Source: a virus
Taxonomy: Duplodnaviria; Caudoviricetes
DNA: 64,000 bases
Strand: one strand, 5' to 3'
Virus record (IMG/VR): IMGVR_UViG_3300026549_002518
Coordinates: 394-64,393 of that record
Position 1 is the first letter of the stretch. Every line of letters begins with the position of its first letter. Below, one piece after another: positions 4,301-64,000 of this stretch. Both the position numbers and the translations under genes were made by a program. A model generated the notes under the pieces. It did no database searches. It saw nothing but the letters and a program-made list of their open reading frames with translations, and was not told the origin of the DNA.

Positions 4301-7300
4301 AAGCTATTGCAGAGCGTGAAGCCGCTAAGAGTGAGGAACAGCGCCAGCGTGAGGCAGAGGAAGCCAAAGCCATCAAGGAACGACAGGATGCCGAGCAGGC
4401 AGAACGCCGTCGTAAGCAGATTGAGGAAGAGGTGGCACAGTGGAACAAGCCGTATGCACCGCTTACCAAGGCTAAGAGAGAAATGGCCGGTGATGCTGAT
4501 GCCCTTGAAATCCTCAACAATGTTGAGCCTCGCAGCCTGGAGGAATGGGTATCTTCACTTATCCGTCCACAGTCAATGATGTGGGAAGACGAGACCGACG
4601 AAGCCAGCGGCCGCACCATTATTGGCCTGCAGAGCGAACTTGGCCTGCAGAAGAAAGACGTAGAGCGTATCGGTGGTCTTGTAGCAACACGTAAGAAAGG
4701 TGGAAAGCCTTTCGGACAGGTCGTACATGATATATGGGAAGACCTTCCCGACGGTATGAAGAATATGTATGACGACCAAGATGTACGTAATACACTCATT
4801 GGCCTTTTCAATGAGGGTAACACCATGCGTATGCGTCACCTTACAGAAGAGCACCGCATAGAAGAAGCCCGTGCCATGATGCAGGAGAACGAGCGCAGGG
4901 ATGCTGAGGCAGAGCTGGAAGCATGGGCAGAAGCCTATCACCTTACACCTGAAGAGCGTGAGACCTTTGAGGACTACATGCAGCAGGCACCAACAGCAAT
5001 CGAACAGGAAATAATCAATAACATTTTAGCAGATGAATCGTATAGAAGAAGCAGAGAACTGGATCAACAGTCTGTCAGCGGAACAAATGTACCAGGAGCT
5101 ACAGAAAGCCAAGAAGAAGTACGGCAAGCAAGTCAGGCCGTTAGTACTGGAGATAATGAAGAAGCAGCTACCCAAGGCCGTCAAAGAGCTACAGGTGAGC
5201 AGACTTCTGTTGCAGACAATGTTCCTGGCAGAACACAAAGCTTAGAGCGTGAGTATATCAAGGAGATGCTTCACCAGATAGGTGAGGACGTTTCCGTTGC
5301 CAACGCCATGAGCGACTATGAGGTGGAACAGCTCAACGCTATGTTGGAAGACTGGGATGCCCATAATGATGACTATGGCATGGTCATTGAGCAACAGAAG
5401 GACGCACTGAAGAGCAAGGACAAGAAAGTCCGTGATGCAGCCCAAAAGAAAATTGACGAGGCACAGGCCGTCGCCAACCAAGCTTTTGAGCCTGTCGCAA
5501 TGTACATTGAAGAGCTGAAAGCGAAGTATGCCAATGTAGAGGAAGAGGGCGTAATACCACGTCCGAAGATTGACAATCCCCGCTTTAAGGCTATCCGTCA
5601 GAACCTTGTTGATGCTCTTAGCCTCTTCCTTGACACCAACACCAACGCTACAGACGTATGGGCTGCTGCAAAGGCTATCCGTGACTATGTAGACGAAGGA
5701 CTGGATATAGACCTTGACACTAACGATGACGAGAACCTTGCTGACTGGGCGTTTGACTATGACGGCAACGACCCCGAAAAGCTTGCCGACCAATATATAG
5801 GTCGTGTGTATTTCGACAGATACCTGGATGATGACGAAGACCAAGAGTATATCCGCAGTGGTATCTTGGCCAGCATGCGCAACGACAACAAGTTTATCAA
5901 CGGCTTTGAGGCTAACGAGAATGGCGTGTGTATCAATCCGCATACCATCGGAGAGCATAAGGAGAAGAACAACATCAATGTTGGTTTCACCATCGAGACA
6001 GCCGAGACCGATAAGGGTTGGGTTGGTGGCATATCATGTGGCCACTCTACTGGTGGATGGGGTAATCCTGTATGTGCCGGTATCAACGAGAGATACTTTG
6101 AGACTGAGAAAGAGTGTCAGGCATACTGGGCACAGCAGATTATTGACTACTTTGCCCATGATGGCAAGAAAGACAGCAAGGTTAAGAAGTATATCCCATC
6201 CCTGCAGAACATTGTCAACAAAGGCAAAAAGGCAAAGAAACCGGAAATCACAAATGATGTTAACAAAACACCGAGTGATGCAGAAAAAGATGTAACTTTG
6301 CAGCAAGCAATTAGCGAAGTTGGCAATGAAATAGACGCACGACCTGTCAAGGCTATCAGTTCTGAAGCAGACCTGCAGGAATACGTTAATGCCGGTGTCG
6401 CCCAAAATATTCTGAATCCCATCCGTGAAGACTTGAATGATCCCAGCGTCATGGGAAGATACGAAAGCGACTTGATGGGTGTTATACTCCTGTTTGCCGA
6501 GAAGATAAAAGCCGCAGGACTTACTAAGGAACAGATAAAAGGCATCTGCTATCACGAAAACGTTCACTCTCTTGCTGACAGAGGCTTTACGCCAGCAGAC
6601 TTTGAAGAGGCTGCAACGCTTATTGACAGGGTACAACCCGACCTTGTTAAATGGGCACGTGAGAAAGGTGCAGAAGACAATCTGTCCGACGAAGCTGTCA
6701 ACGAGGAAATAGTTTCCTACTTTGTACAGTTTGTTGATGACAAAATCGCTTTCCTGAAAGGTGACCTCGACTTTGGAGATAAAGACCTTAACAGGAAGAT
6801 GGATGAAGTAGCAGCGTTACTTACAAACAATAAATATGGAACAGGACAAAAGAACGAAGAAGTACCGCCAAGTACCCCTGGAGGAATACGTGAAAGCGTC
6901 TCAGTGGACGAAGCCGCCAAGGAAGTATCTGAGCAAGAGTCCGAAAGAGGAACAGTAGACCAGCAGCCTATTGGCAAGACTTCATCACCCGAAGAGATTG
7001 CCCAGGAAGAGGCAAGAGTTGACGCCAACCCCACAGAGGCACAGAAGGAAGCCGGAAACTATCAGAAGGGCCACATCAATGTTGATGGCTATGACATCAC
7101 CATCGAGAATCCCAAGGGTAGCATCCGTCGTGGTACTGATGCTGACGGCAGGGAGTGGCAACAGGAAATGCACAACACCTATGGCTATATCAAGGGCACA
7201 GAAGGTGTTGACGGTGACCACATCGACGTATTCCTGTCTGACAACCCCGCCAGTGGTAAGGTGTGGGTCATCGACCAGGTGAACCCCAAGACCGGAGAAT

Positions 7301-13300: not shown

Positions 13301-16300
13301 GTGCAGAGCTTGAACGCTTTGAGAACATGACCGGCAAGGAGAAGAGAGAGAACAGCAGCATACCTTTGACTATGTACGGTATTGCCAAGCGTGCAGCCAT
13401 TGACCCACGACTGGTGAACCCCGATGCAGCTGACGAGCCGCTGAGCAAGACCAATGCCGCAGTCAAGGAGATACTGGCAGACCTAAAGAGCACCAAGAAG
13501 TACAACGGTACTGTTGCCGTATTCTGTGACAATCAGAACCGTTTAGGCAATGGTGGTGTCGTTGAGTTCAACATCTTTGACGACATGAAGGCTAAGCTGG
13601 TTGCGGAGGGCGTTCCCGAAAAGCAGATAGCCATCATCAAGAGCAGCATGAGTATCAGTGCCAAGCAGAAGATATTCGATGCCGTCAACAAGGGAGAGGT
13701 ACGTGTTATTATGGGTAGCACGCAGACCTTGGGAACCGGTGTGAACATTCAAGAGCGCCTGCACTGTCTGATACACATGGATGCGCCCGACCGCCCTATG
13801 GACTACACACAGCGTAACGGACGTATCGAGAGACAGGGCAACCTGCACAAAGACTGGGGTCTGCCTATCCGCATACTCCGCTTTGGCGTAGAGGACTCTC
13901 TCGATGTGACAGCCTACCAGCGCCTAAAGACAAAGTCCGGCTTCATTGACTCTATTATGAAAGGTAAGGAAGCTTTGGCCAACAACCAAACAGACCGTAC
14001 CATTGAGGAAGAAGAGGAAGGACTGTTTGACAATCCCGTGGCCGTTCTTTCCGGTTCGCAGTTTGCCATGAAGAAAAACCAGGCAGAGCGAGAGCTGAGA
14101 AAGCTGCAGGGCAAGTATAACGCATGGGAAGCCGACCAGATATATGTATCTGCACAGCTTCGTGCCAACGAGGGTTGGGTACGTGACCGTGAGAAGAAGA
14201 TTGCTGAAACCCAAGAGCAGCTGGACTTCATACGTGGCATGTTTCCTGATGGTAAGGTAAAGGTTATCACCGTCGGTAACACCAAGGTCGATATGACCAA
14301 GGAAGATGCCGGCAAAAAGCTTGACGAGGTTATCAAGGAGAAGATTAACGACCCTGTAAACGCCACCGTCAAGAATCTCAGAGAGAATGAGATATACAAC
14401 GACGAGACCATACCGTATACTATAGAGCTTGACGGTCATCCTGTCAAGTTAGAGGCAGACATTTTCCGTACTTCTGACTGGGATCGTGGTCAGATGCGTA
14501 CCACCATCCATAAACGTTTGCACTTTAGCAGTGGTGATTTAAGACTGGACGATGGTACTGGTGGAATAGGTACAACCAGGAGTGTTCGTGAAATCCTTGA
14601 CGACATCATGCAGACTGTCATTTCCGGAAAGGGCTATGAGGACGTCATCAGTAACGCTAAGCTTTCCATCCAGCGTGCCAACGAGTCTACAGAACAGCTT
14701 AAGCAACGTGAGGGCCAGCCGTTCCAGTACATTAAGGAGATGGCAGAAGCCAAGGAGCGTGTAGAGGAATACACAGCGCTGATGAAGAAGGAGCTGGAAG
14801 AGAAAGAAGCCAAGTACAAGGCACAACAGCAGGATACCAAGGATGGATTCGATCTTAAGAAAGCCGCTGACACAGAGGATGATGAGGTACGTTACAGCGC
14901 TGATGAAGACTGGGACGATGCCATCTTCTACAGTAACGCTATGCGAGCTGTTGAGAATATCCGACAGGAAAAGGCCACACCGCAGCAGTGGCTTGCTATG
15001 ATTGACAAGAATGGTGGACTGAAAGCCGGCGAAGACAAGTGGTTAGGACTGTCTGACTGGTTGAAGTCACAGGACAAGAAGTCGCTGACTAAGCAGGAGG
15101 TCATCAACTACATACTCTTACATGAGATAGAGGTGCTGGACGTCCACTATGGTCGTTCACCGCTGGACTTGCTAAATGAAGAGTTCTATTCCCTGCGTAA
15201 GAAGTATATGGATGCTGGCGACGGCACATACCTTGCAGAGCGCAAGGCCATGAACGACCTTGACGATAGATACCCAGGCTTTGGAAAAGGTACTTATCTG
15301 CAACACTTCGACGATGGCACAGTGTATGTTGACTATGACTACGACGAGCCGAAAGCAGTCAAGCAGCTGGAGGAATACTTTGCCAGCAATGTCAAGGTGA
15401 TAGAAGACACTCGTCTACAGTACACGACAACAGGACTGGAGAACAAGCAGGAGATAGCTTTGATAGTTCCTACCATTGAGCCGTACAACCAAAACGACGA
15501 GATACATTTTGGTGATGCCGGTAATGGTCGTGCTGTTGCATGGGTACGCTTTGGTGAAACTACCATCAAACCAGATGGCACGACAGGCTACAAGACTCAC
15601 GACAGTTTTGTACTGGCCATGCAAAAGAAGTACAATGGCGCTATGGGCTATGCTCTGCGTGAAAAGATGACCGACGAAGAAAAGCTGATTGAAGATAAGC
15701 TGATGCGTTACGCCTTTATTGAGGATGAAGGCGAACAGCGTGTATTGGTTATTGACGAGATACAGTCTAAGCGTCATCAGGACGGTAGAGAAATGGGCTA
15801 CGGTGTTCCTGTATTTACTAAAGCTACCATTGGCGAGTATAAGCCAACAGATGAAGAAACAGAGTTTGAAGCAGATATTATAGCACCTAACGGAAATAAG
15901 ATAGGTACTATGATCCGCTATGAATACGAAGATGAGCCTGTTAGTTATTCTGCCATGAATAACAATGGCACTCACATGACCAGTGCAAGGCCTACTGAAC
16001 AAGAGGCTTTGACAGCTATGGACCATCTCTCCCCTAAAGGTGTTCCAGAAGCACCGTTTGAAAAGAACTGGCATGAGCTGGCAATGAAGCGCATGCTAAG
16101 ATATGCAGCCGAAAACGGCTATGATAAGATAGCATGGACTACAGGCGCACAGCAGGCAGAGCGGTACAACATCGGTCAGGTTGTTAAAAGGATACAGTCT
16201 GGTATATATCCAGATGGAACAAGAAATACTATTATCAATCTAAATAGTGGAAAATACATCTCATTATATCATGACGAAAATGGCAACATAACAAGAATCG

Positions 16301-19300
16301 CTGGAGATAGGGGATTTGTAGACGATGCTAAGAATTTGTCTGATGTCGTTGGTAAAGAATTAGCTATAAAAATTCTTTCACAGACAAAGCGAGGAAAAGA
16401 AGGTGCTGTTGAATATTCAGGTGACAATCTTCGTTTTGGTGGCGAGGGCATGAAAGGCTTCTACGACCAAATGTTACCGCGCTTTATGGAGAAGTACGGC
16501 AGAAAATGGGGTGCAAAGGTCAGTAAGATAGAGCTTCCAAACGTTGAGGCACCTGCCATGTGGTCTGTAGACATCACACCGGAAATGAAGGAGAGTGTGA
16601 TGCACGGTCAGCCACTGTTCAGAGACATGGAGCAGTTTGCCGATGGTGACACGTTCCCCATCCATGTGTCGCACAGCTATTCTGATACCGACGTGGTAAG
16701 ACGTACCAGCAGCTACAGCACCGACCTGATGCCCGACGAGTACGGCAGCCTTCCCGAGCTGTTAGATGCCATCCGTCGCCAGTACCCAGCATACTATGCT
16801 ACCATTGAGGATGGTAACGTACGACTGGAGAAGTGGTCAAACGTGCTACAGAGTGAGCGCACAGCAAGCAATATGAAAGATGCTGGTGCCAAGAGCTATA
16901 TCGACAGAAAGACCAAGAGGAGTATTGATGCCGTCAACAGCCTTGCAGATATGCTGCACCTCAATGTTGAGGTGCTGACAAGTACCGACGGCCTACAGGG
17001 TAAGAAAGCTCGTAGCCGTGGATGGTTTGACCCAAAGACCGGAAAGATTGTGCTGGTACTTCCCAACCACCGCAACCAGGAAGACCTTATCAACACACTG
17101 TTGCATGAGGGTGTAGCGCATGCCGGACTGCGTAAGATGTTTGGTGTACACTTCGACACATTCCTGGACAATGTATACAACAATGTATCGCCAGTCATCA
17201 AGGCACGCATTGATGCAGCCATGAAGCGTAACAAGTGGGGACGCCATGAGGCTACCGAGGAATACCTTGCCAAGCTTGCAGAACGTACCGACTTCGATAA
17301 TGCCTACAGCCAAGGATGGTGGAATAAGATTAAGCAGTTCTTCCTTGACATGCTTACCAAGGTAGGCGTACGCATGCAAGAGCTGTCGGACAACGAGCTA
17401 CGCTATATTCTGTGGCGCAGTTATGATAATCTGTTGCATCCCAACAAGCGCAGGAATATCTTTGACAAAGCCCGTGAAGTACAGATGCAAAGTCGCCTGC
17501 GTGTTGGTCCATACAGAGAACGAGAGAGAATACAGTGGACTGGTAAAGTTGATGCCAGCCGCATAGCCGCTGAGGCAGAGCCAAACAACGAAGAAATGTT
17601 AAATAAAGACTTTGATAGCATGACGTCTCAGGAAATATTGTTATCTTTGTCACAAAAAGATGATTATGGAAGAAACGAAGCAATCAATGAGCTTGTCAGA
17701 CGTATCAGAACAGGAGCTGCAAGAATTGTACGAATGGGGAAAGACCTGGGGAGTGAACGAGAAAACGATGCATCACTTGCTGGTCGAATCATTGGCGGAT
17801 GGCAACTTGGACTATCTTCACAGTCAGATGAAACACTGGGAAGCGTGGTGTCGGGTATACCCCCGTTGGAAGGAAGACCCACACCTGCAGGGCAGAATAC
17901 TCCGACCGATTACCAACATGCCATCATCGAATGGGCAAAAGCCACAGGGCACTACATCTCCGAAGAAGAGGTAAGAGAATCATCACCCGATAAAGACGTT
18001 TGGCACTCCGGCGCACAGAGCCGTGTCTATAGAACTCCAGACGGCAAGAAAGTTGTCAAGTTCATGGAATCATGGGTTTATTGGCAGAACCCGTTGCTAA
18101 AGAATTTGGACAGTATTGCCCTTCACAATGCTGCAGGCTTTGTTCCTATGACAGTCATAGGCTATTCGACCGACAAAAACGGTAAGCTAAGAATTGTACT
18201 GGAGCAAGACTATGTAGACGGTATCACTGTCGACGACATGTTTGATGACGAACCCCTCATCAAAATAAATAACTATATTGACGTCTTCATGGAAGAAGAG
18301 CTTGGTCTTGTGCGTCATATTGACCCAGACGGCAACCTCTTCCACATGAAGGATGGCGTCATCTACAAAGACTTCCACGGTGCAAACATTGTTGTCGACA
18401 AGGATTTCCATCGACACGTCATTGACTGTTACGTATCACTGGCTGACGATGACAAGAAGGAGAGAACAGGCTCGTTTGTTATTGAGGATAACGAGAAAGA
18501 GCTATTTTCCATCCGCACCAAGGAAGCACCCAAGAAGACCGGCACAGGTTATAAGGTGTTTGTGCTGAAAGACGGTGAGCTATATCCCCCGATGGTAGCC
18601 AACCCAGGAGGTGAAGGTACGCCTGTAGGTGTATGGCTGGATGCTGATGCAGCACCTGTCATCGGTGAGAGCAAGACAGGGCGTCCGCAGGTTAAGGCTG
18701 GCGGCAAAGGCACACAAGGCGGCAGTGGACAGCTGGCATACCGTCCAGGCTGGCATCTTGGCACTATTCCTTACGCCTTACAGTTTGGCCGCAAGGATGC
18801 CAACGGCAACAAGACCTTATTCCCCAACAACTTTGTATGGGCAGAGGTAGAGTATGCAGACGATGTAGACTACCAGCAGGAAGCACATGATGCAGGCATC
18901 AATGCCAATGGCAAGTACCAGCACGCACTGGCTGGCTTGAAGCATGTTCCCGAGGATGGCAGCTATAAGTATCGCACCAATCCCAATCCCAACACCGACG
19001 AATGGATCATTACGGGAGCCATGCGCGTGAAACGCATCCTTACAAGGGCAGAAGTCGACGAGCTTGTCCGCAAGGCAGGCCGTGAGCCACAGCAGATACA
19101 GGATGGTGACATTGTGACGGATGACGTGGTAAAGCAGCTCAACGAAGAGATACAGGCCATGAAAGAAGCAGACGACATGGGTCTGTTGTACAGCGCTGAT
19201 GAAGACTGGATAGATATTGCTAAAGGTGTCTATGAGCGTGCCGTAGCCAAGGAGTCGCTGAAATATCAGGAAGCCTGGCAGGACTCTATGGTAAGCCTTA

Positions 19301-44024: not shown

Positions 44025-45176
44025 TTAACAACCCTTCCGTTTTCTTGCCTTACGCAAATCGCCAGCAATGACATCATCGGTTATCTCTGCATATATGCCA
44101 GTAGTCTGAATGTTAGAATGACCGAGAAGTCGCTGAATAGTTGATAGCTGTACACCCTGCTGTAGAAGCAGAGAGGCGAAGGTGTGACGAGCAGTATGGA
44201 ACGTAAATCCCTTATCGCCACAATCTGCCATCTTCAAGATGTCTTTCAGATGCTTGTTGACAGTAGCATTGGAACCAATGTGCGTTGTAAGCCCTTCTAT
44301 AGAGCCGTACCTTTCAATGATAGACAGCGCCTTGCCGTCAAAGAGTTCTTTTACAGGAATATGAACATCCAATTGTGTCTTCACCATACGCTTGATGATG
44401 ACACCTTTCTGTAGGTGCTCGTTGCGTAGCGTATGCACGTCAGAGAAACGCAGACCAGTATAGCAGGAGAACAGGAAAGCGTCACGTACCATAGCAACCT
44501 TTCCTACCAGTTGCAGGTCTTCGACCTTTCTCAACTGTGCAGAAGATAGGAAACCACGCTTGGAAGTCATGGCAGGAATCTTGAAACGCTCAAATGGCGA
44601 CTCATGGATAAGCTTACGCTTCTTTGCTTCAAGGATGATGGTTCGCAGGATACGCAGTCGGCATACACGGGTGTTGTGACCGTTACCATGTGCTTTCAGC
44701 CATGTGTCATACTTACAGACAAATGTGTAGTCAACATCTTGCAGGAGAGTGCCAGGGCGGAACTTCTCGATGGAGTTGAAGAGTGTGCGGTAAGACCTGC
44801 GTGTCATCTCACGTCGTGTAGACGAAGAGTTGAGCATTTCTTGTCCGAAGTCGATGAGACGAGCTGTAGGACGGGAGTTCTCACGCCATGCCTGACGCAA
44901 CAGCTCTAACGTAGGAGGAACACCACGCTTCATGCAATCTATTTCTACTGACTGCAGGTCGTAGATAATCTGACGCAGGCGGTAATTCAACTGCTCAGCG
45001 ATAGGATGGTTAACAACTTGCCCATGACAGAATTGGTCGGGCGTTACCTTTACACGGGTGGAGAAATAGGCTTTCCGTCGCTGTTGCGAGCATTCTATCT
45101 GTAGAAGCCCGCTGCCGTCTGGAGCCAATCGTCCGTTACGACAGAACGTCGCACGGTAGGAAATTAAGTTAAACAT
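44025..45176 (-). CDS. Tyrosine recombinase/integrase (Bacteroidetes Arm-DNA-bind + SAM-like + catalytic domains)
   Basis: FSCYTGLRFSD (R), K, HTARHTFA (HxxR), LLGHS, IYA (Tyr); likely start MFNLISYR at 45176. Confidence 0.9.
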   Translation of the reverse strand: MFNLISYRATFCRNGRLAPDGSGLLQIECSQQRRKAYFSTRVKVTPDQFCHGQVVNHPIAEQLNYRLRQIIYDLQSVEIDCMKRGVPPTLELLRQAWRENSRPTARLIDFGQEMLNSSSTRREMTRRSYRTLFNSIEKFRPGTLLQDVDYTFVCKYDTWLKAHGNGHNTRVCRLRILRTIILEAKKRKLIHESPFERFKIPAMTSKRGFLSSAQLRKVEDLQLVGKVAMVRDAFLFSCYTGLRFSDVHTLRNEHLQKGVIIKRMVKTQLDVHIPVKELFDGKALSIIERYGSIEGLTTHIGSNATVNKHLKDILKMADCGDKGFTFHTARHTFASLLLQQGVQLSTIQRLLGHSNIQTTGIYAEITDDVIAGDLRKARKRKGC

Positions 45177-45277
45177 ACCAACATTATGTTTAATTACCAA
45201 CGAAAATAGCGAGCAGGAGGGGTTGTTGGATGCCCGCTTCACAGGGTAGCTAATCCTGCTTATCCGCTCGCTTGGTG

Positions 45278-61615: not shown

Positions 61616-62650
61616 TTAATTCCTCAGCTTGCGCAACAGCACCTTGTTGATGGCCTGAATGCGTCGTCCGCTCTTGCTGATGTCCTCACGTACATTATTG
61701 ATATTATTAAAGAAGTCGCTGAAGGCATTCAGCACCTGGTTGGGTTGTCCGCTATCTTCGGTAGCATCGGGATTGGTGACGATGTTGATGCCCAGATGCT
61801 CGATGTGCACGTCGATATCCGTTCCCGTCATGATGGGGTCGCCGTCATAGTGGATGGCCCCGGGGTGGTGGCGGTGTATGTGCAGGCTCTTCGTACGGAA
61901 GGTCTTGATCTTTGAGTTGTTGCCCAGCGTCTTCATAAACAGGTCGGCGGCTATCTGTGGTGCTTCCAGGGCGTCGAAGGGCTCCATGATGATGACGTCC
62001 ATCATGCCGTCGCGCATGGTGGCTCCTGGCGCGATGTAGGCGTTGTTGCCGTACTGCGACGCGTTGGCACAGGCTATGAGGAACGCCTTATGATGGTGAA
62101 TGCCGCTGTCGTCGACAATCTCGTAGGTCTCCGGGCGATACTTCAGTCCTTCCTTCAGCACGTTTTCCACGTAGGTCACCGGCCCACGCTTGCCAGCCTC
62201 GGCAAACTTCAGCGAGATAAACGCGTCGAAGCCAATGCCGCAGGTGCAGAAGAACGGCAGGTCGTTGATGACGCCGTAGTCGAACGGTTCTATCTGGCAG
62301 TGGTTGATGATCTGCAGCGCCTTGGCCGTGTCCATCGGCAGACACAGATGGCGCGCCAGTCCGTTGCCCGAACCGCAGGGAATGACGCCCAGCGCCGTTT
62401 GCGTGTGGGTCAGCGAGCGTGCCACTTCATTGACGGTACCGTCGCCACCCACGGCCACCACTATGTCGCGCCCCTCGGCAGCACATTGGCGGGTCAGCTC
62501 TGCTGCGTGTCCCCGATATTCCGTCAGGCGTACGTCGTAGTCAAAGCGGGTCTTGTCCAGCAACTCGTCGATAAGACTGGGTATATGGTCTTTGTTTTGA
62601 GTGCCAGAGATGGGATTTATGATGAAAGTAATGCTCTTTTTCGTATCCAT
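61616..62650 (-). CDS. YegS/DAGK-family lipid kinase (diacylglycerol/sphingoid base kinase-like), host gene
   Basis: FIINPISG, VGGDGTVNE, IPCGSGNGLA, ANASQYG; TACATTTG promoter element at 62659-62666. Confidence 0.9.
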   Translation of the reverse strand: MDTKKSITFIINPISGTQNKDHIPSLIDELLDKTRFDYDVRLTEYRGHAAELTRQCAAEGRDIVVAVGGDGTVNEVARSLTHTQTALGVIPCGSGNGLARHLCLPMDTAKALQIINHCQIEPFDYGVINDLPFFCTCGIGFDAFISLKFAEAGKRGPVTYVENVLKEGLKYRPETYEIVDDSGIHHHKAFLIACANASQYGNNAYIAPGATMRDGMMDVIIMEPFDALEAPQIAADLFMKTLGNNSKIKTFRTKSLHIHRHHPGAIHYDGDPIMTGTDIDVHIEHLGINIVTNPDATEDSGQPNQVLNAFSDFFNNINNVREDISKSGRRIQAINKVLLRKLRN

Positions 62651-62812
62651 TTCGTCTGCAAATGTACGAATTATACTCGAAAAACGGGCTTGAAAGCAAA
62701 TAAATTTCTAAAAAAGAAAGAAATATCTGACTTTTTATGCACGGTTTCCATAAAAATGTGTAACTTTGCAGTCTGAAATCAATTTCGTAGCTCTGCTACA
62801 CCTATATAATTT

Positions 62813-64000
62813 ATGGGACAACTACAAGAAAAGTACAAACACTATCGTGAGCCTCAGAAGTTTATGGAGGCTGACGTTTATCCTTATTTTCGTGCCATTG
62901 AGGGCAAACAGGGAACCGAAGTAGAAATGGGCGGACACAAAGTGTTGATGTTCGGCTCAAACGCCTATACCGGTCTCACGGGCGACCAGCGCATCATTGA
63001 TGCTGCCAAGGCTGCCCTCGATAAGTATGGCTCAGGCTGTGCCGGTAGCCGTTTCCTCAACGGTACGCTTGACTTGCATGTACAGTTAGAGAAGGAAATT
63101 TCAGAGTTCATCCACAAGGACGACTGCCTCTGCTTCTCTACAGGTTTCTCCGTCAATCAGGGCGTTCTCGCTATGGTTGTCGGCAAGGACGACTATATCA
63201 TCTGTGACGACCGCGACCACGCTAGTATCGTTGACGGACGCCGTCTGTCGTTTGCCCGTCAGCTGCACTACAAGCACAACGACATGGAAGACCTGGAGCG
63301 TGTGCTGCAGAAGCTGCCCCACGACGCTATCAAGCTTATCGTTGTCGACGGTGTGTTCTCGATGGAAGGTGATTTGGCCAAGCTGCCCGAGATTGTCGAG
63401 CTGAAGCACAAGTACAACTGCTCCATCATGGTTGACGAGGCCCACGGCATTGGTGTCTTCGGTGACCACGGACGTGGCGTCTGCGACTATTTCGGACTCA
63501 CCGACGAGGTAGACCTCATCATGGGAACCTTCTCGAAGTCGTTGGCCAGCATCGGCGGTTTCATCGCCTCTGACTGGGACACCATCAACTTCCTGCGTCA
63601 CACCTGCCGCACCTATATCTTCTCGGCTTCTAACACCCCTGCCGCTACGGCTGCAGCACTCGAGGCCCTGCACATCCTGCAGAAGGAGCCTGAGCGTATC
63701 GAGGCCCTGTGGAAGGTTACCAAGTACGCCCTGAAGCGTTTCTCCGAGGAAGGCTTCGAGATTGGCGATACCGAGAGCCCTATCATTCCCCTCTATGTGC
63801 GCGACGTCGACAAGACATTCCTCGTCACCGCCCTCGCGTTCAAGGCTGGTGTCTTCATCAATCCCGTCATTCCGCCCGCTTGTGCTCCTCAGGACACCTT
63901 GGTACGCTATGCCCTCATGGCTACCCATACCGAAGAGCAGGTAGAGCGTTCTGTGAAGGCGCTGAAGAAGATTTTCGTCGAACAGGGCATTATTAAGTAA
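62813..64000 (+). CDS. spt: Serine palmitoyltransferase (PLP-dependent alpha-oxoamine synthase), host gene
   Basis: FGSNAYTGL, GSGCAGSRFLNGT, DGVFSMEGD, DEAHG, GTFSKSLAS; divergent from DAGK as in Bacteroides; promoter element TGTAACTTTGCAG at 62759. Confidence 0.85.
   Translation: MGQLQEKYKHYREPQKFMEADVYPYFRAIEGKQGTEVEMGGHKVLMFGSNAYTGLTGDQRIIDAAKAALDKYGSGCAGSRFLNGTLDLHVQLEKEISEFIHKDDCLCFSTGFSVNQGVLAMVVGKDDYIICDDRDHASIVDGRRLSFARQLHYKHNDMEDLERVLQKLPHDAIKLIVVDGVFSMEGDLAKLPEIVELKHKYNCSIMVDEAHGIGVFGDHGRGVCDYFGLTDEVDLIMGTFSKSLASIGGFIASDWDTINFLRHTCRTYIFSASNTPAATAAALEALHILQKEPERIEALWKVTKYALKRFSEEGFEIGDTESPIIPLYVRDVDKTFLVTALAFKAGVFINPVIPPACAPQDTLVRYALMATHTEEQVERSVKALKKIFVEQGIIK

Follow-up and report, generated by a model that had tools for sequence, protein, structure and literature searches.

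In phage lambda the spanin gene Rz1 is embedded in Rz, and the two products act together in lysis. Similarly, comS lies inside srfAB of Bacillus subtilis, and mobB inside mobA/repB of plasmid RSF1010. Phage morons are extra genes with their own promoter and terminator, which lie between prophage genes and are expressed in lysogens. Epsilon/zeta and PezA/PezT are toxin-antitoxin pairs, the toxin of which belongs to the Pfam family PF06414. Here we describe a stretch of viral DNA of 64,000 nucleotides (nt), hereafter "the window", which takes in nearly all of the IMG/VR record IMGVR_UViG_3300026549_002518 (64,393 bp). One giant gene of this element, encoding a polyvalent protein, contains smaller open reading frames (ORFs) in its +1 frame. 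The best explanation of the evidence as a whole is that four of them, designated by their start positions as 5033, 9191, 9506 and 17660 (Table 1), are genuine genes nested in linkers of the giant gene, having their own initiation and an accessory, moron-like character. We assign this reading a probability of about 0.82.

Table 1. Positions of the giant gene, the predicted nested genes and the promoter-like boxes in the window
Feature	Position	Strand	Description
Giant polyvalent-protein gene	1324-23028	+	From ORF list and Pfam; 21.7 kb, 7234 aa; relatives with 6602- and 6676-codon ORFs
Predicted nested +1 gene 5033	5033-5245	+	70 aa; main frame is a G/S/R/Q/T-rich linker
TAACTTTG box	9159-9166	+	25 nt before the 9191 start; Bacteroides -7-like
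Predicted nested +1 gene 9191	9191-9427	+	Trp-rich product of 78 aa, "type A"; in the variable slot that follows the zeta-kinase domain
Predicted nested +1 gene 9506	9506-9649	+	47 aa, second of a tandem pair; C-terminal IGLSVLDL..P motif
TATCTTTG box	17642-17649	+	11 nt before the 17660 start
Predicted nested +1 gene 17660	17660-17974	+	104 aa; helical core at residues 11-81; tail overlaps the Kinase-PolyVal start

The giant ORF fills about one third of the genome. According to Pfam, its product contains InPase, Zeta_toxin, SNF2-type helicase (Helicase_C/SNF2), Kinase-PolyVal and LPD38 domains. As a single phage polypeptide uniting several enzyme domains of conflict type with LPD domains, it matches the polyvalent proteins defined by Iyer et al. 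2017 (PMC5512222). A megablast search of the giant gene against GenBank phages returned no match. The original prediction had singled out five ORFs, starting at 5033, 6836, 9191, 9506 and 17660, and the ORF list confirms their coordinates and their common frame: all begin with ATG and all are in frame +1 of the giant ORF. Each is complete, from start to stop, within the larger ORF, on the same strand and in another frame, and forms with it an embedded pair.

These ORFs had been said to be unlike ordinary shadow ORFs. By length they are not. The +1 frame of the giant gene contains 0.042 stops per codon, other ORFs of 163, 120 and 103 amino acids (aa) also occur in it, and the longest shadow ORF of the minus strand has 355 aa; given this low stop rate and the presence of longer shadow ORFs, length provides no support for the five. 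Lengths within the +1 expectation are compatible with a chance origin, the ORFs being shadows cast by low-complexity composition or by-products of a conserved RNA or DNA element. Codon usage, in contrast, separates four of the five from shadow ORFs. With a codon-usage likelihood derived from 30 other ORFs of the window, the +1 and +2 frames were compared with the main frame. Apart from a faint signal at 17404-17554, the +1 frame is preferred only at 5014-5254, 9154-9424, 9454-9664 and 17614-17944, and the +2 frame is never preferred. The same comparison was made on 300 synonymous-codon shuffles that leave the giant protein, and with it the low-complexity linkers, unchanged (sliding windows of 50 codons, moved codon by codon). 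The number of windows favouring +1 was 167 in the observed sequence, of which 41 scored below -10, against a mean of 0.2 in the shuffles, with none below -10. Since shuffles preserving the protein abolish the +1 signal, it is not a by-product of linker composition.

Two further claims concerned the surroundings of the ORFs. The leaders are indeed AT-rich: the 25 nt upstream of the ORFs have an A+T content of 68-76%, a level reached by 3.3% of the 25-nt windows of the giant gene. The main frame had been described as turning into low-complexity sequence over each ORF. Its fraction of G/S/R/Q/T residues, 0.28 overall, rises to 0.43-0.54 over 5033, 9191 and 9506, and more weakly, to 0.38, over 17660. 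Gene callers have independently listed members of all four families, as proteins of 49-105 aa. Such public small-protein calls mostly occur where a contig end cuts the giant ORF; in one 59-kb contig the call was made despite an open giant frame.

Several candidates were rejected. ORF 6836-6958 (+, 40 aa) exhibits no +1 preference in its codon usage and has no counterpart in any relative. The 163-aa +1 ORF at 5804-6295, also without +1 preference in the codon test, is a shadow. In both of these cases a chance origin does hold. The 103-aa +1 ORF at 6971-7282 owes its likeness among relatives to conservation of the InPase domain, and the long ORFs of the minus strand were set aside as shadow ORFs.

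Scans of viral and metagenome collections yielded three long relatives (G1, G2 and G3) and about 20 shorter loci (designated by L numbers). G1 is a complete 65-kb genome, and its giant protein is 65% identical to that of the window; the relatives are not near-clonal, which also argues against chance. They were tested blind with the same codon test, a cut of -5 being used in the later comparisons. In every relative examined, the +1-favoured segments coincide with ATG-started open +1 ORFs at homologous or syntenic sites, and no +2-favoured segment passes the cut. Both frames are open in 8/8 genomes for the 5033 family, in 9/10 for the 9506 family and in 3/3 for the 17660 family; in the one exception, L039, the stop is in the giant frame and the nested frame is uninterrupted. 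In nearly all genomes the nested ATG is found 1-5 codons past a +1 stop, and the ORF length is similar. Identity is higher in the nested than in the giant frame in all 28 pairs of the 5033 family and all 45 pairs of the 9506 family, and in 3/3, 9/10 and 6/6 pairs of further family sets. The integrity of the ORFs is kept at 40-60% protein identity over 8-10 genomes, hardly the behaviour of shadow ORFs. Purifying selection on the nested frame is clear for 5033 and 9506, moderate for 17660 and weak for 9191. The comparison of homologous giant genes, proposed as a check along with the five ORFs, finds the +1 frame kept open in four families, 6836 being the exception. These four ORFs are predicted to be conserved nested protein-coding genes.

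Close relatives differ in which nested genes they have: G2 lacks 5033 and 9506, and neither G1 nor G2 has 17660. Scans of genome contigs with the 9191 and 9506 families gave no relatives, and neither the 9191 peptide nor the kinase domain nor the 17660 family found a match in scans of viral contigs. The giant gene of G2 contains another +1 ORF, of 74 aa, between its MutS_I and SNF2 modules (L016:11567-11788; nt 9967-10201 of the giant gene), with strong codon-usage support (-21.7); it has no counterpart in the window.

The 5033 family is represented by DNA from eight genomes and by at least 12 proteins, the ORF being 69-76 aa long. Its ATG follows a conserved +1 stop by one or two codons. Mean identity is 0.57 in the nested frame and 0.43 in the giant frame, and the ratio of nonsynonymous to synonymous substitution rates (dN/dS) is 0.1-0.5 in the nested frame vs 0.7-4.6 in the giant frame. 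In the closest pair (L020 and L035), 14 of the 16 differences fall at the nested wobble position. With an alignment of 12 sequences, AlphaFold2 predicts a three-helix bundle with a predicted local distance difference test score (pLDDT) of 92.8 and a predicted template modelling score (pTM) of 0.79, a confident fold that a chance ORF would not be expected to give. A Foldseek search of this model against PDB gave no match at E <= 0.001, and searches of the ESM Atlas with the nested proteins gave no usable match.

The most conserved member of the nested set is 9506. Over ten genomes, the mean identity is 0.61 in the nested frame and 0.38 in the giant frame. Nucleotide differences at nested codon positions 1:2:3 number 738:434:1034; substitutions follow the periodicity of the nested frame, position 2 changing less than position 1 and position 1 less than position 3. 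In the alignment of the giant genes of the window and G1, only three of 712 ungapped 40-codon windows exhibit a +1 identity exceeding that of the main frame, and all three are in the 9506 region. The differences at the three main-frame positions are there 15, 13 and 4, compared with 5487:3871:13530 overall. Such periodicity speaks against shadow ORFs, and for the four ORFs we consider a chance or by-product origin barely credible.

An exhaustive profile search added 33 members to the 9506 family, mostly of 49-81 aa and with the same C-terminal motif end. A free-standing protein of 225 aa (L041:1105-1782), in another phage or phage-like locus near a CI-type repressor gene, carries a 9506-like domain as its C-terminus. 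Since an ordinary protein ends in such a domain, the 9506 family exists outside overlaps. In another locus, the only stop of the giant frame in 6.2 kb (L039:3018-3020) is located six codons into an intact nested ORF of 9506 type; it may represent a natural split of the giant gene at the linker, a nonsense mutation or an assembly error.

The 17660 family has four members of 93-105 aa with 65-78% identity. Their dN/dS is 0.20-0.37 in the nested frame and 0.48-0.91 in the giant frame, and this stretch is truly dual-coding, both frames being constrained. The AlphaFold2 model has a pLDDT of 68.7 overall and of 74-86 over residues 11-81, followed by a disordered tail in the part that shares its DNA with the beginning of the kinase domain. 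Foldseek found no match for it in PDB at E <= 0.001.

The site of 9191 behaves as a variable slot. The window shares type A with G2, L048 and L049. An unrelated ORF, type B, occupies the same site in G1, L023, L050 and L051, and L025, L026 and G3 have other types. G3 lacks the entire linker, its zeta domain running straight into the conserved YAEWK motif. A tandem nested pair, consisting of a variable first ORF followed by a conserved 9506-type ORF, is present in the window, G1, L048, L049, L050 and L051. In relatives without a 9191-type insert, +1 ORFs that begin inside the YAEWK/NDV motif were observed (L026:2880-3098, L025:2334-2459 and L018:467-640, minus strand); in L025 the main frame ends only 2 nt past the nested ORF.

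Nine contigs from a different element carry a stand-alone copy of 9191. All nine encode the same protein, which is 81% identical to that of 9191. The DNA common to this copy and the window amounts to 290 bp with 88% identity, extending from 43 nt before the ATG to 10 nt past the stop and including the TAACTTTG box. The piece was copied out of a giant gene, as it still carries flanking main-frame motifs. Its setting is a Bacteroidales-style island, where the giant-gene piece, with the box and the 9191-type ORF, measures about 325 bp (L045:3925-4250; also L046 and L047). It lies there between an N6/N4 methylase-helicase pair (restriction-modification), a helix-turn-helix gene, and HU-HIG and DUF4248 genes.

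The location of the ORFs at module junctions, where fusion would occur, and the interruption of the L039 giant gene at such a junction, could suggest a different origin. The nested frames might be read by programmed frameshifting, giving truncated isoforms with a helical tail, or they might be relic N-termini of formerly separate genes. We find either version very improbable. In almost every genome a +1 stop precedes the conserved ATG by 1-5 codons, too short a distance to accommodate a shift site. The ORFs end at their own stops, with no run-on into the next domain. Relics would decay, whereas purifying selection is ongoing, as the wobble-position differences between L020 and L035 indicate, and 9191 persists as a free-standing unit with a promoter-like box. 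In the nested-gene reading, each small protein would be initiated at its own conserved ATG, behind the +1 stop and an A/T-rich leader, and not by frameshifting. We infer this from the +1 stop immediately upstream, from the free-standing copy and from the leader composition, which fits initiation in Bacteroidota.

Less certainly, the 9191-9506 pair and 17660 may also be transcribed from internal promoters of host type. The boxes listed in Table 1 conform to TAnnTTTG, the -7 promoter consensus of Bacteroides. Conservation of the box before 9191 extends to the window, G1, L023 and the stand-alone copy (L045), and that of the box before 17660 to the window, L043 and L044 (3/3), main-frame synonymous sites included. 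A sigma-70 consensus scan found nothing at the nested ORFs, this consensus not being relevant to Bacteroidota promoters. Both places are covered by assembled RNA-library contigs, the sequences of which match the window exactly or almost exactly. Four contigs from three studies (9184-9708, 9195-9748, 9209-9993 and 9299-9713) cover 9191-9649, and three from two studies (17659-18435, 17669-18531 and 17766-18359) cover all or most of 17660-17974; two of the runs are from one sample. In that sample (X11/X13), contigs begin 10-20 nt past the boxes at 9159 and 17642, and likewise past a third box at 6293. RNA-contig cover is missing over, for example, 3500-6254, which takes in 5033, and over most of 11214-17274; such gaps are no evidence about expression and were used neither way. 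These contigs are a weak hint that internal transcripts carry 9191 with 9506, and 17660.

The third box, again TAACTTTG, is followed by X11/X13 contigs from 6319 to 7311 and 7693, across the HExxH motif and the InPase domain. No credible nested ORF follows it; the first sizeable ATGs, at 6451 and 6475, are in the giant frame. An internal transcript from this region might encode an N-terminally truncated isoform of the giant protein. A 9-bp hairpin without U-tract, considered as a candidate terminator, is located at 9751-9773, just past the right ends (9708, 9713 and 9748) of three RNA contigs that cover the 9191-9506 pair; the consensus scan found nothing there.

The window also contains genes for a P22-like portal and for a tyrosine integrase (44025-45242) with Bacteroidota-type arm and SAM-like domains. 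At the right end, 61616-64000, host-like genes for a DAGK/YegS-type lipid kinase and a class I/II aminotransferase were observed, and the record probably takes in a prophage-host junction. Given the portal, the integrase and the host-like genes, the element is a temperate phage or prophage. Public runs containing the stretch are from bovine and other gut metagenomes. The element is a Bacteroidota-type temperate phage from the bovine gut.

According to the original prediction, four of the nested ORFs lie next to a recognizable enzyme domain. This is correct for two of them. The Zeta_toxin domain directly precedes 9191, which starts 6 codons past the domain end, and Kinase-PolyVal directly follows 17660, the end of which overlaps the start of the kinase domain (both by Pfam). 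The giant protein has a single HExxH motif, at aa 1744, about 440 aa past 5033, and neither Pfam nor PDB sequence searches of the flanking regions confirmed a methyltransferase motif beside 9506. As the PDB searches with the regions flanking 5033 and 9506 gave no match, the supposed HExxH-peptidase and methyltransferase neighbours are unconfirmed. The two close contacts agree with an effector-immunity relationship, in which the nested protein would bind and neutralize the adjoining enzyme domain (9191 the zeta kinase, 17660 the PolyVal kinase), thereby protecting the producing cell, or protecting the lysogen against polyvalent proteins ejected by superinfecting relatives. Such a relationship suits a temperate element with an integrase and with nested units possibly under promoters of their own. 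Polyvalent loci have been compared to polymorphic-toxin cassettes (Iyer et al., PMC5512222). Further, 17660 is found together with the kinase in the window and L044 (Pfam), and G1 and G2, which lack 17660, carry other modules there. It is the only nested ORF that co-varies with its neighbour domain, but this linkage is trivial, since 17660 physically overlaps the kinase-domain start. In L043, which has a 17660-type gene, the downstream gene has no Pfam family on record.

Zeta domains 55-65% identical with each other are followed by type A, by type B, by the L026 type, or by no nested ORF (G3, L020 and L024), which speaks against strictly cognate pairing. When the type of nested ORF was compared with a tree of 13 zeta domains, the tree was too poorly resolved to judge co-evolution. 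The lone 9191 copy resides beside restriction-modification genes, as an orphan immunity gene might, but it persists there with no zeta domain nearby (L045-L047). Obligatory co-occurrence with the toxin domain, as a zeta antitoxin would exhibit, is found in neither direction. The nested peptides match no antitoxin, defence or phage family of Pfam, PHROG or PADLOC, and bear no likeness to epsilon or PezA; 5033 and 9506 have no assigned neighbouring enzyme, and 6836 is not real. We therefore regard effector-immunity as unlikely. A more elaborate version would be a two-frame system, in which the giant frame encodes ejected zeta and PolyVal kinase effectors and the +1 frame of the adjoining spacer their cognate neutralizers. 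These would be expressed in the lysogen from internal host-type promoters, shielding the host against polyvalent proteins injected by related phages, and bacteria could capture the cassettes as orphan immunity genes, of which the stand-alone 9191 copy near restriction genes would be an example. This version appears to us slightly more doubtful again. Each domain module had originally been proposed to travel with its own overprinted inhibitor or chaperone. The overprinted set itself stands, as genuine genes on linkers with selection on the nested frame; the fixed partnership is doubtful, the zeta module being accompanied neither always by the same nested ORF nor always by any.

Several observations weigh against four nested, independently initiated genes. 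Translation of the nested frames is predicted from sequence, and the nested peptides match no known family or fold in the family, Foldseek PDB and ESM Atlas searches. Both 9191, compared between the window and the stand-alone copy, and 17660 are about equally conserved in the two frames. A promoter-like box is absent before 5033, before 9506 and before the G2 homologue of 9191. Where boxes are present they overlap conserved main-frame residues, which makes their conservation ambiguous. The assembled RNA contigs show neither true 5' ends, strand nor level, and DNA carry-over is possible.

The nested-gene explanation nevertheless accounts best for the data as a whole. It is the nested protein that is under selection at 5033 and 9506, and with less clarity at 9191; the giant frame is there just kept free of stops and reads as a disordered G/S/R/Q/T spacer. 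Given that one ORF takes up a third of the genome, the nested units may be viewed as moron-like accessory genes lodged in permissive linkers. In overlapping pairs, the older frame is usually the one that has a codon usage nearer to that of the genome and is more strongly constrained, while disorder is common in new frames (PMC3494269). The nested frames have genome-like codon usage, order and the stronger constraint, while the spacer is disordered and freely evolving; thus the nested frame is probably older and the spacer the overprint. The small helical proteins most likely have an accessory role, as far as can be inferred, in phage-host or phage-phage conflict.

Long same-strand overlaps are rarely accepted in bacteria and phages, as annotation pipelines forbid them and the evidence for selection is usually thin. 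Here, one gene harbours four overlapping genes, and for each of them the comparative support comes from between 3 and 10 diverged genomes. The division of labour between the frames is uncommon: order and constraint are predicted for the small protein, and for the giant protein no more than an open, disordered spacer. The case points to a general rule, by which disordered linkers of giant polyvalent proteins serve as permissive storage sites for extra genes, possibly with their own promoters, while the essential ORF stays unbroken. If so, catalogues of gut and rumen phage genes miss a class of small proteins. The four families, one with a confident fold, are defined targets for the study of what accompanies ejected effector proteins.

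Our literature searches found no published description of several embedded genes over the spacers of one polyvalent protein. Among the known systems, Rz/Rz1 is similar in that a complete small same-strand +1 gene lies wholly within a larger phage gene, both being kept by selection. However, lambda has one pair with a joint function, whereas the present case involves four unrelated genes in one 21.7-kb gene, without an evident functional tie to it. Moreover, three of the nested genes lie over spacers where the host frame is almost unconstrained. The comS and mobB genes share with them the placement of a small regulatory or accessory gene, out of frame, within a multidomain gene of very large size. 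They occur singly, in synthetase and relaxase genes, in contrast to a recurrent set at the module junctions of a virion-delivered polyvalent protein, including a variable cassette slot. The likeness to morons consists in the variable presence, the host-type-like boxes, the RNA-contig cover, the copying of one unit together with its box, and the temperate nature of the phage; yet morons sit between genes, and the nested genes inside an ORF that must stay open. Epsilon/zeta and PezA/PezT resemble the 9191 site in having the gene of a small helical protein beside a zeta-type kinase domain. There is no sequence likeness between them, and the gene is here downstream and nested, not upstream in an operon, and not obligatory.

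The giant gene itself, with its InPase, Zeta, SNF2, Kinase-PolyVal and LPD38 domains, is a typical polyvalent-protein gene. Linker-nested genes, in contrast, are not part of the description by Iyer et al. 2017 (PMC5512222), in the text of which the words "overlap", "linker" and "low-complexity" do not occur and "nested" refers to nothing but a hairpin fold. As in viral overprinting (PMC3494269, PMC8227390), two frames differ in codon usage and constraint, and one product is ordered and the other disordered. In viral overprinting, however, it is usually the small accessory product that is new and disordered, whereas here the small one is predicted to be ordered and better adapted and the spacer of the large protein to be disordered.

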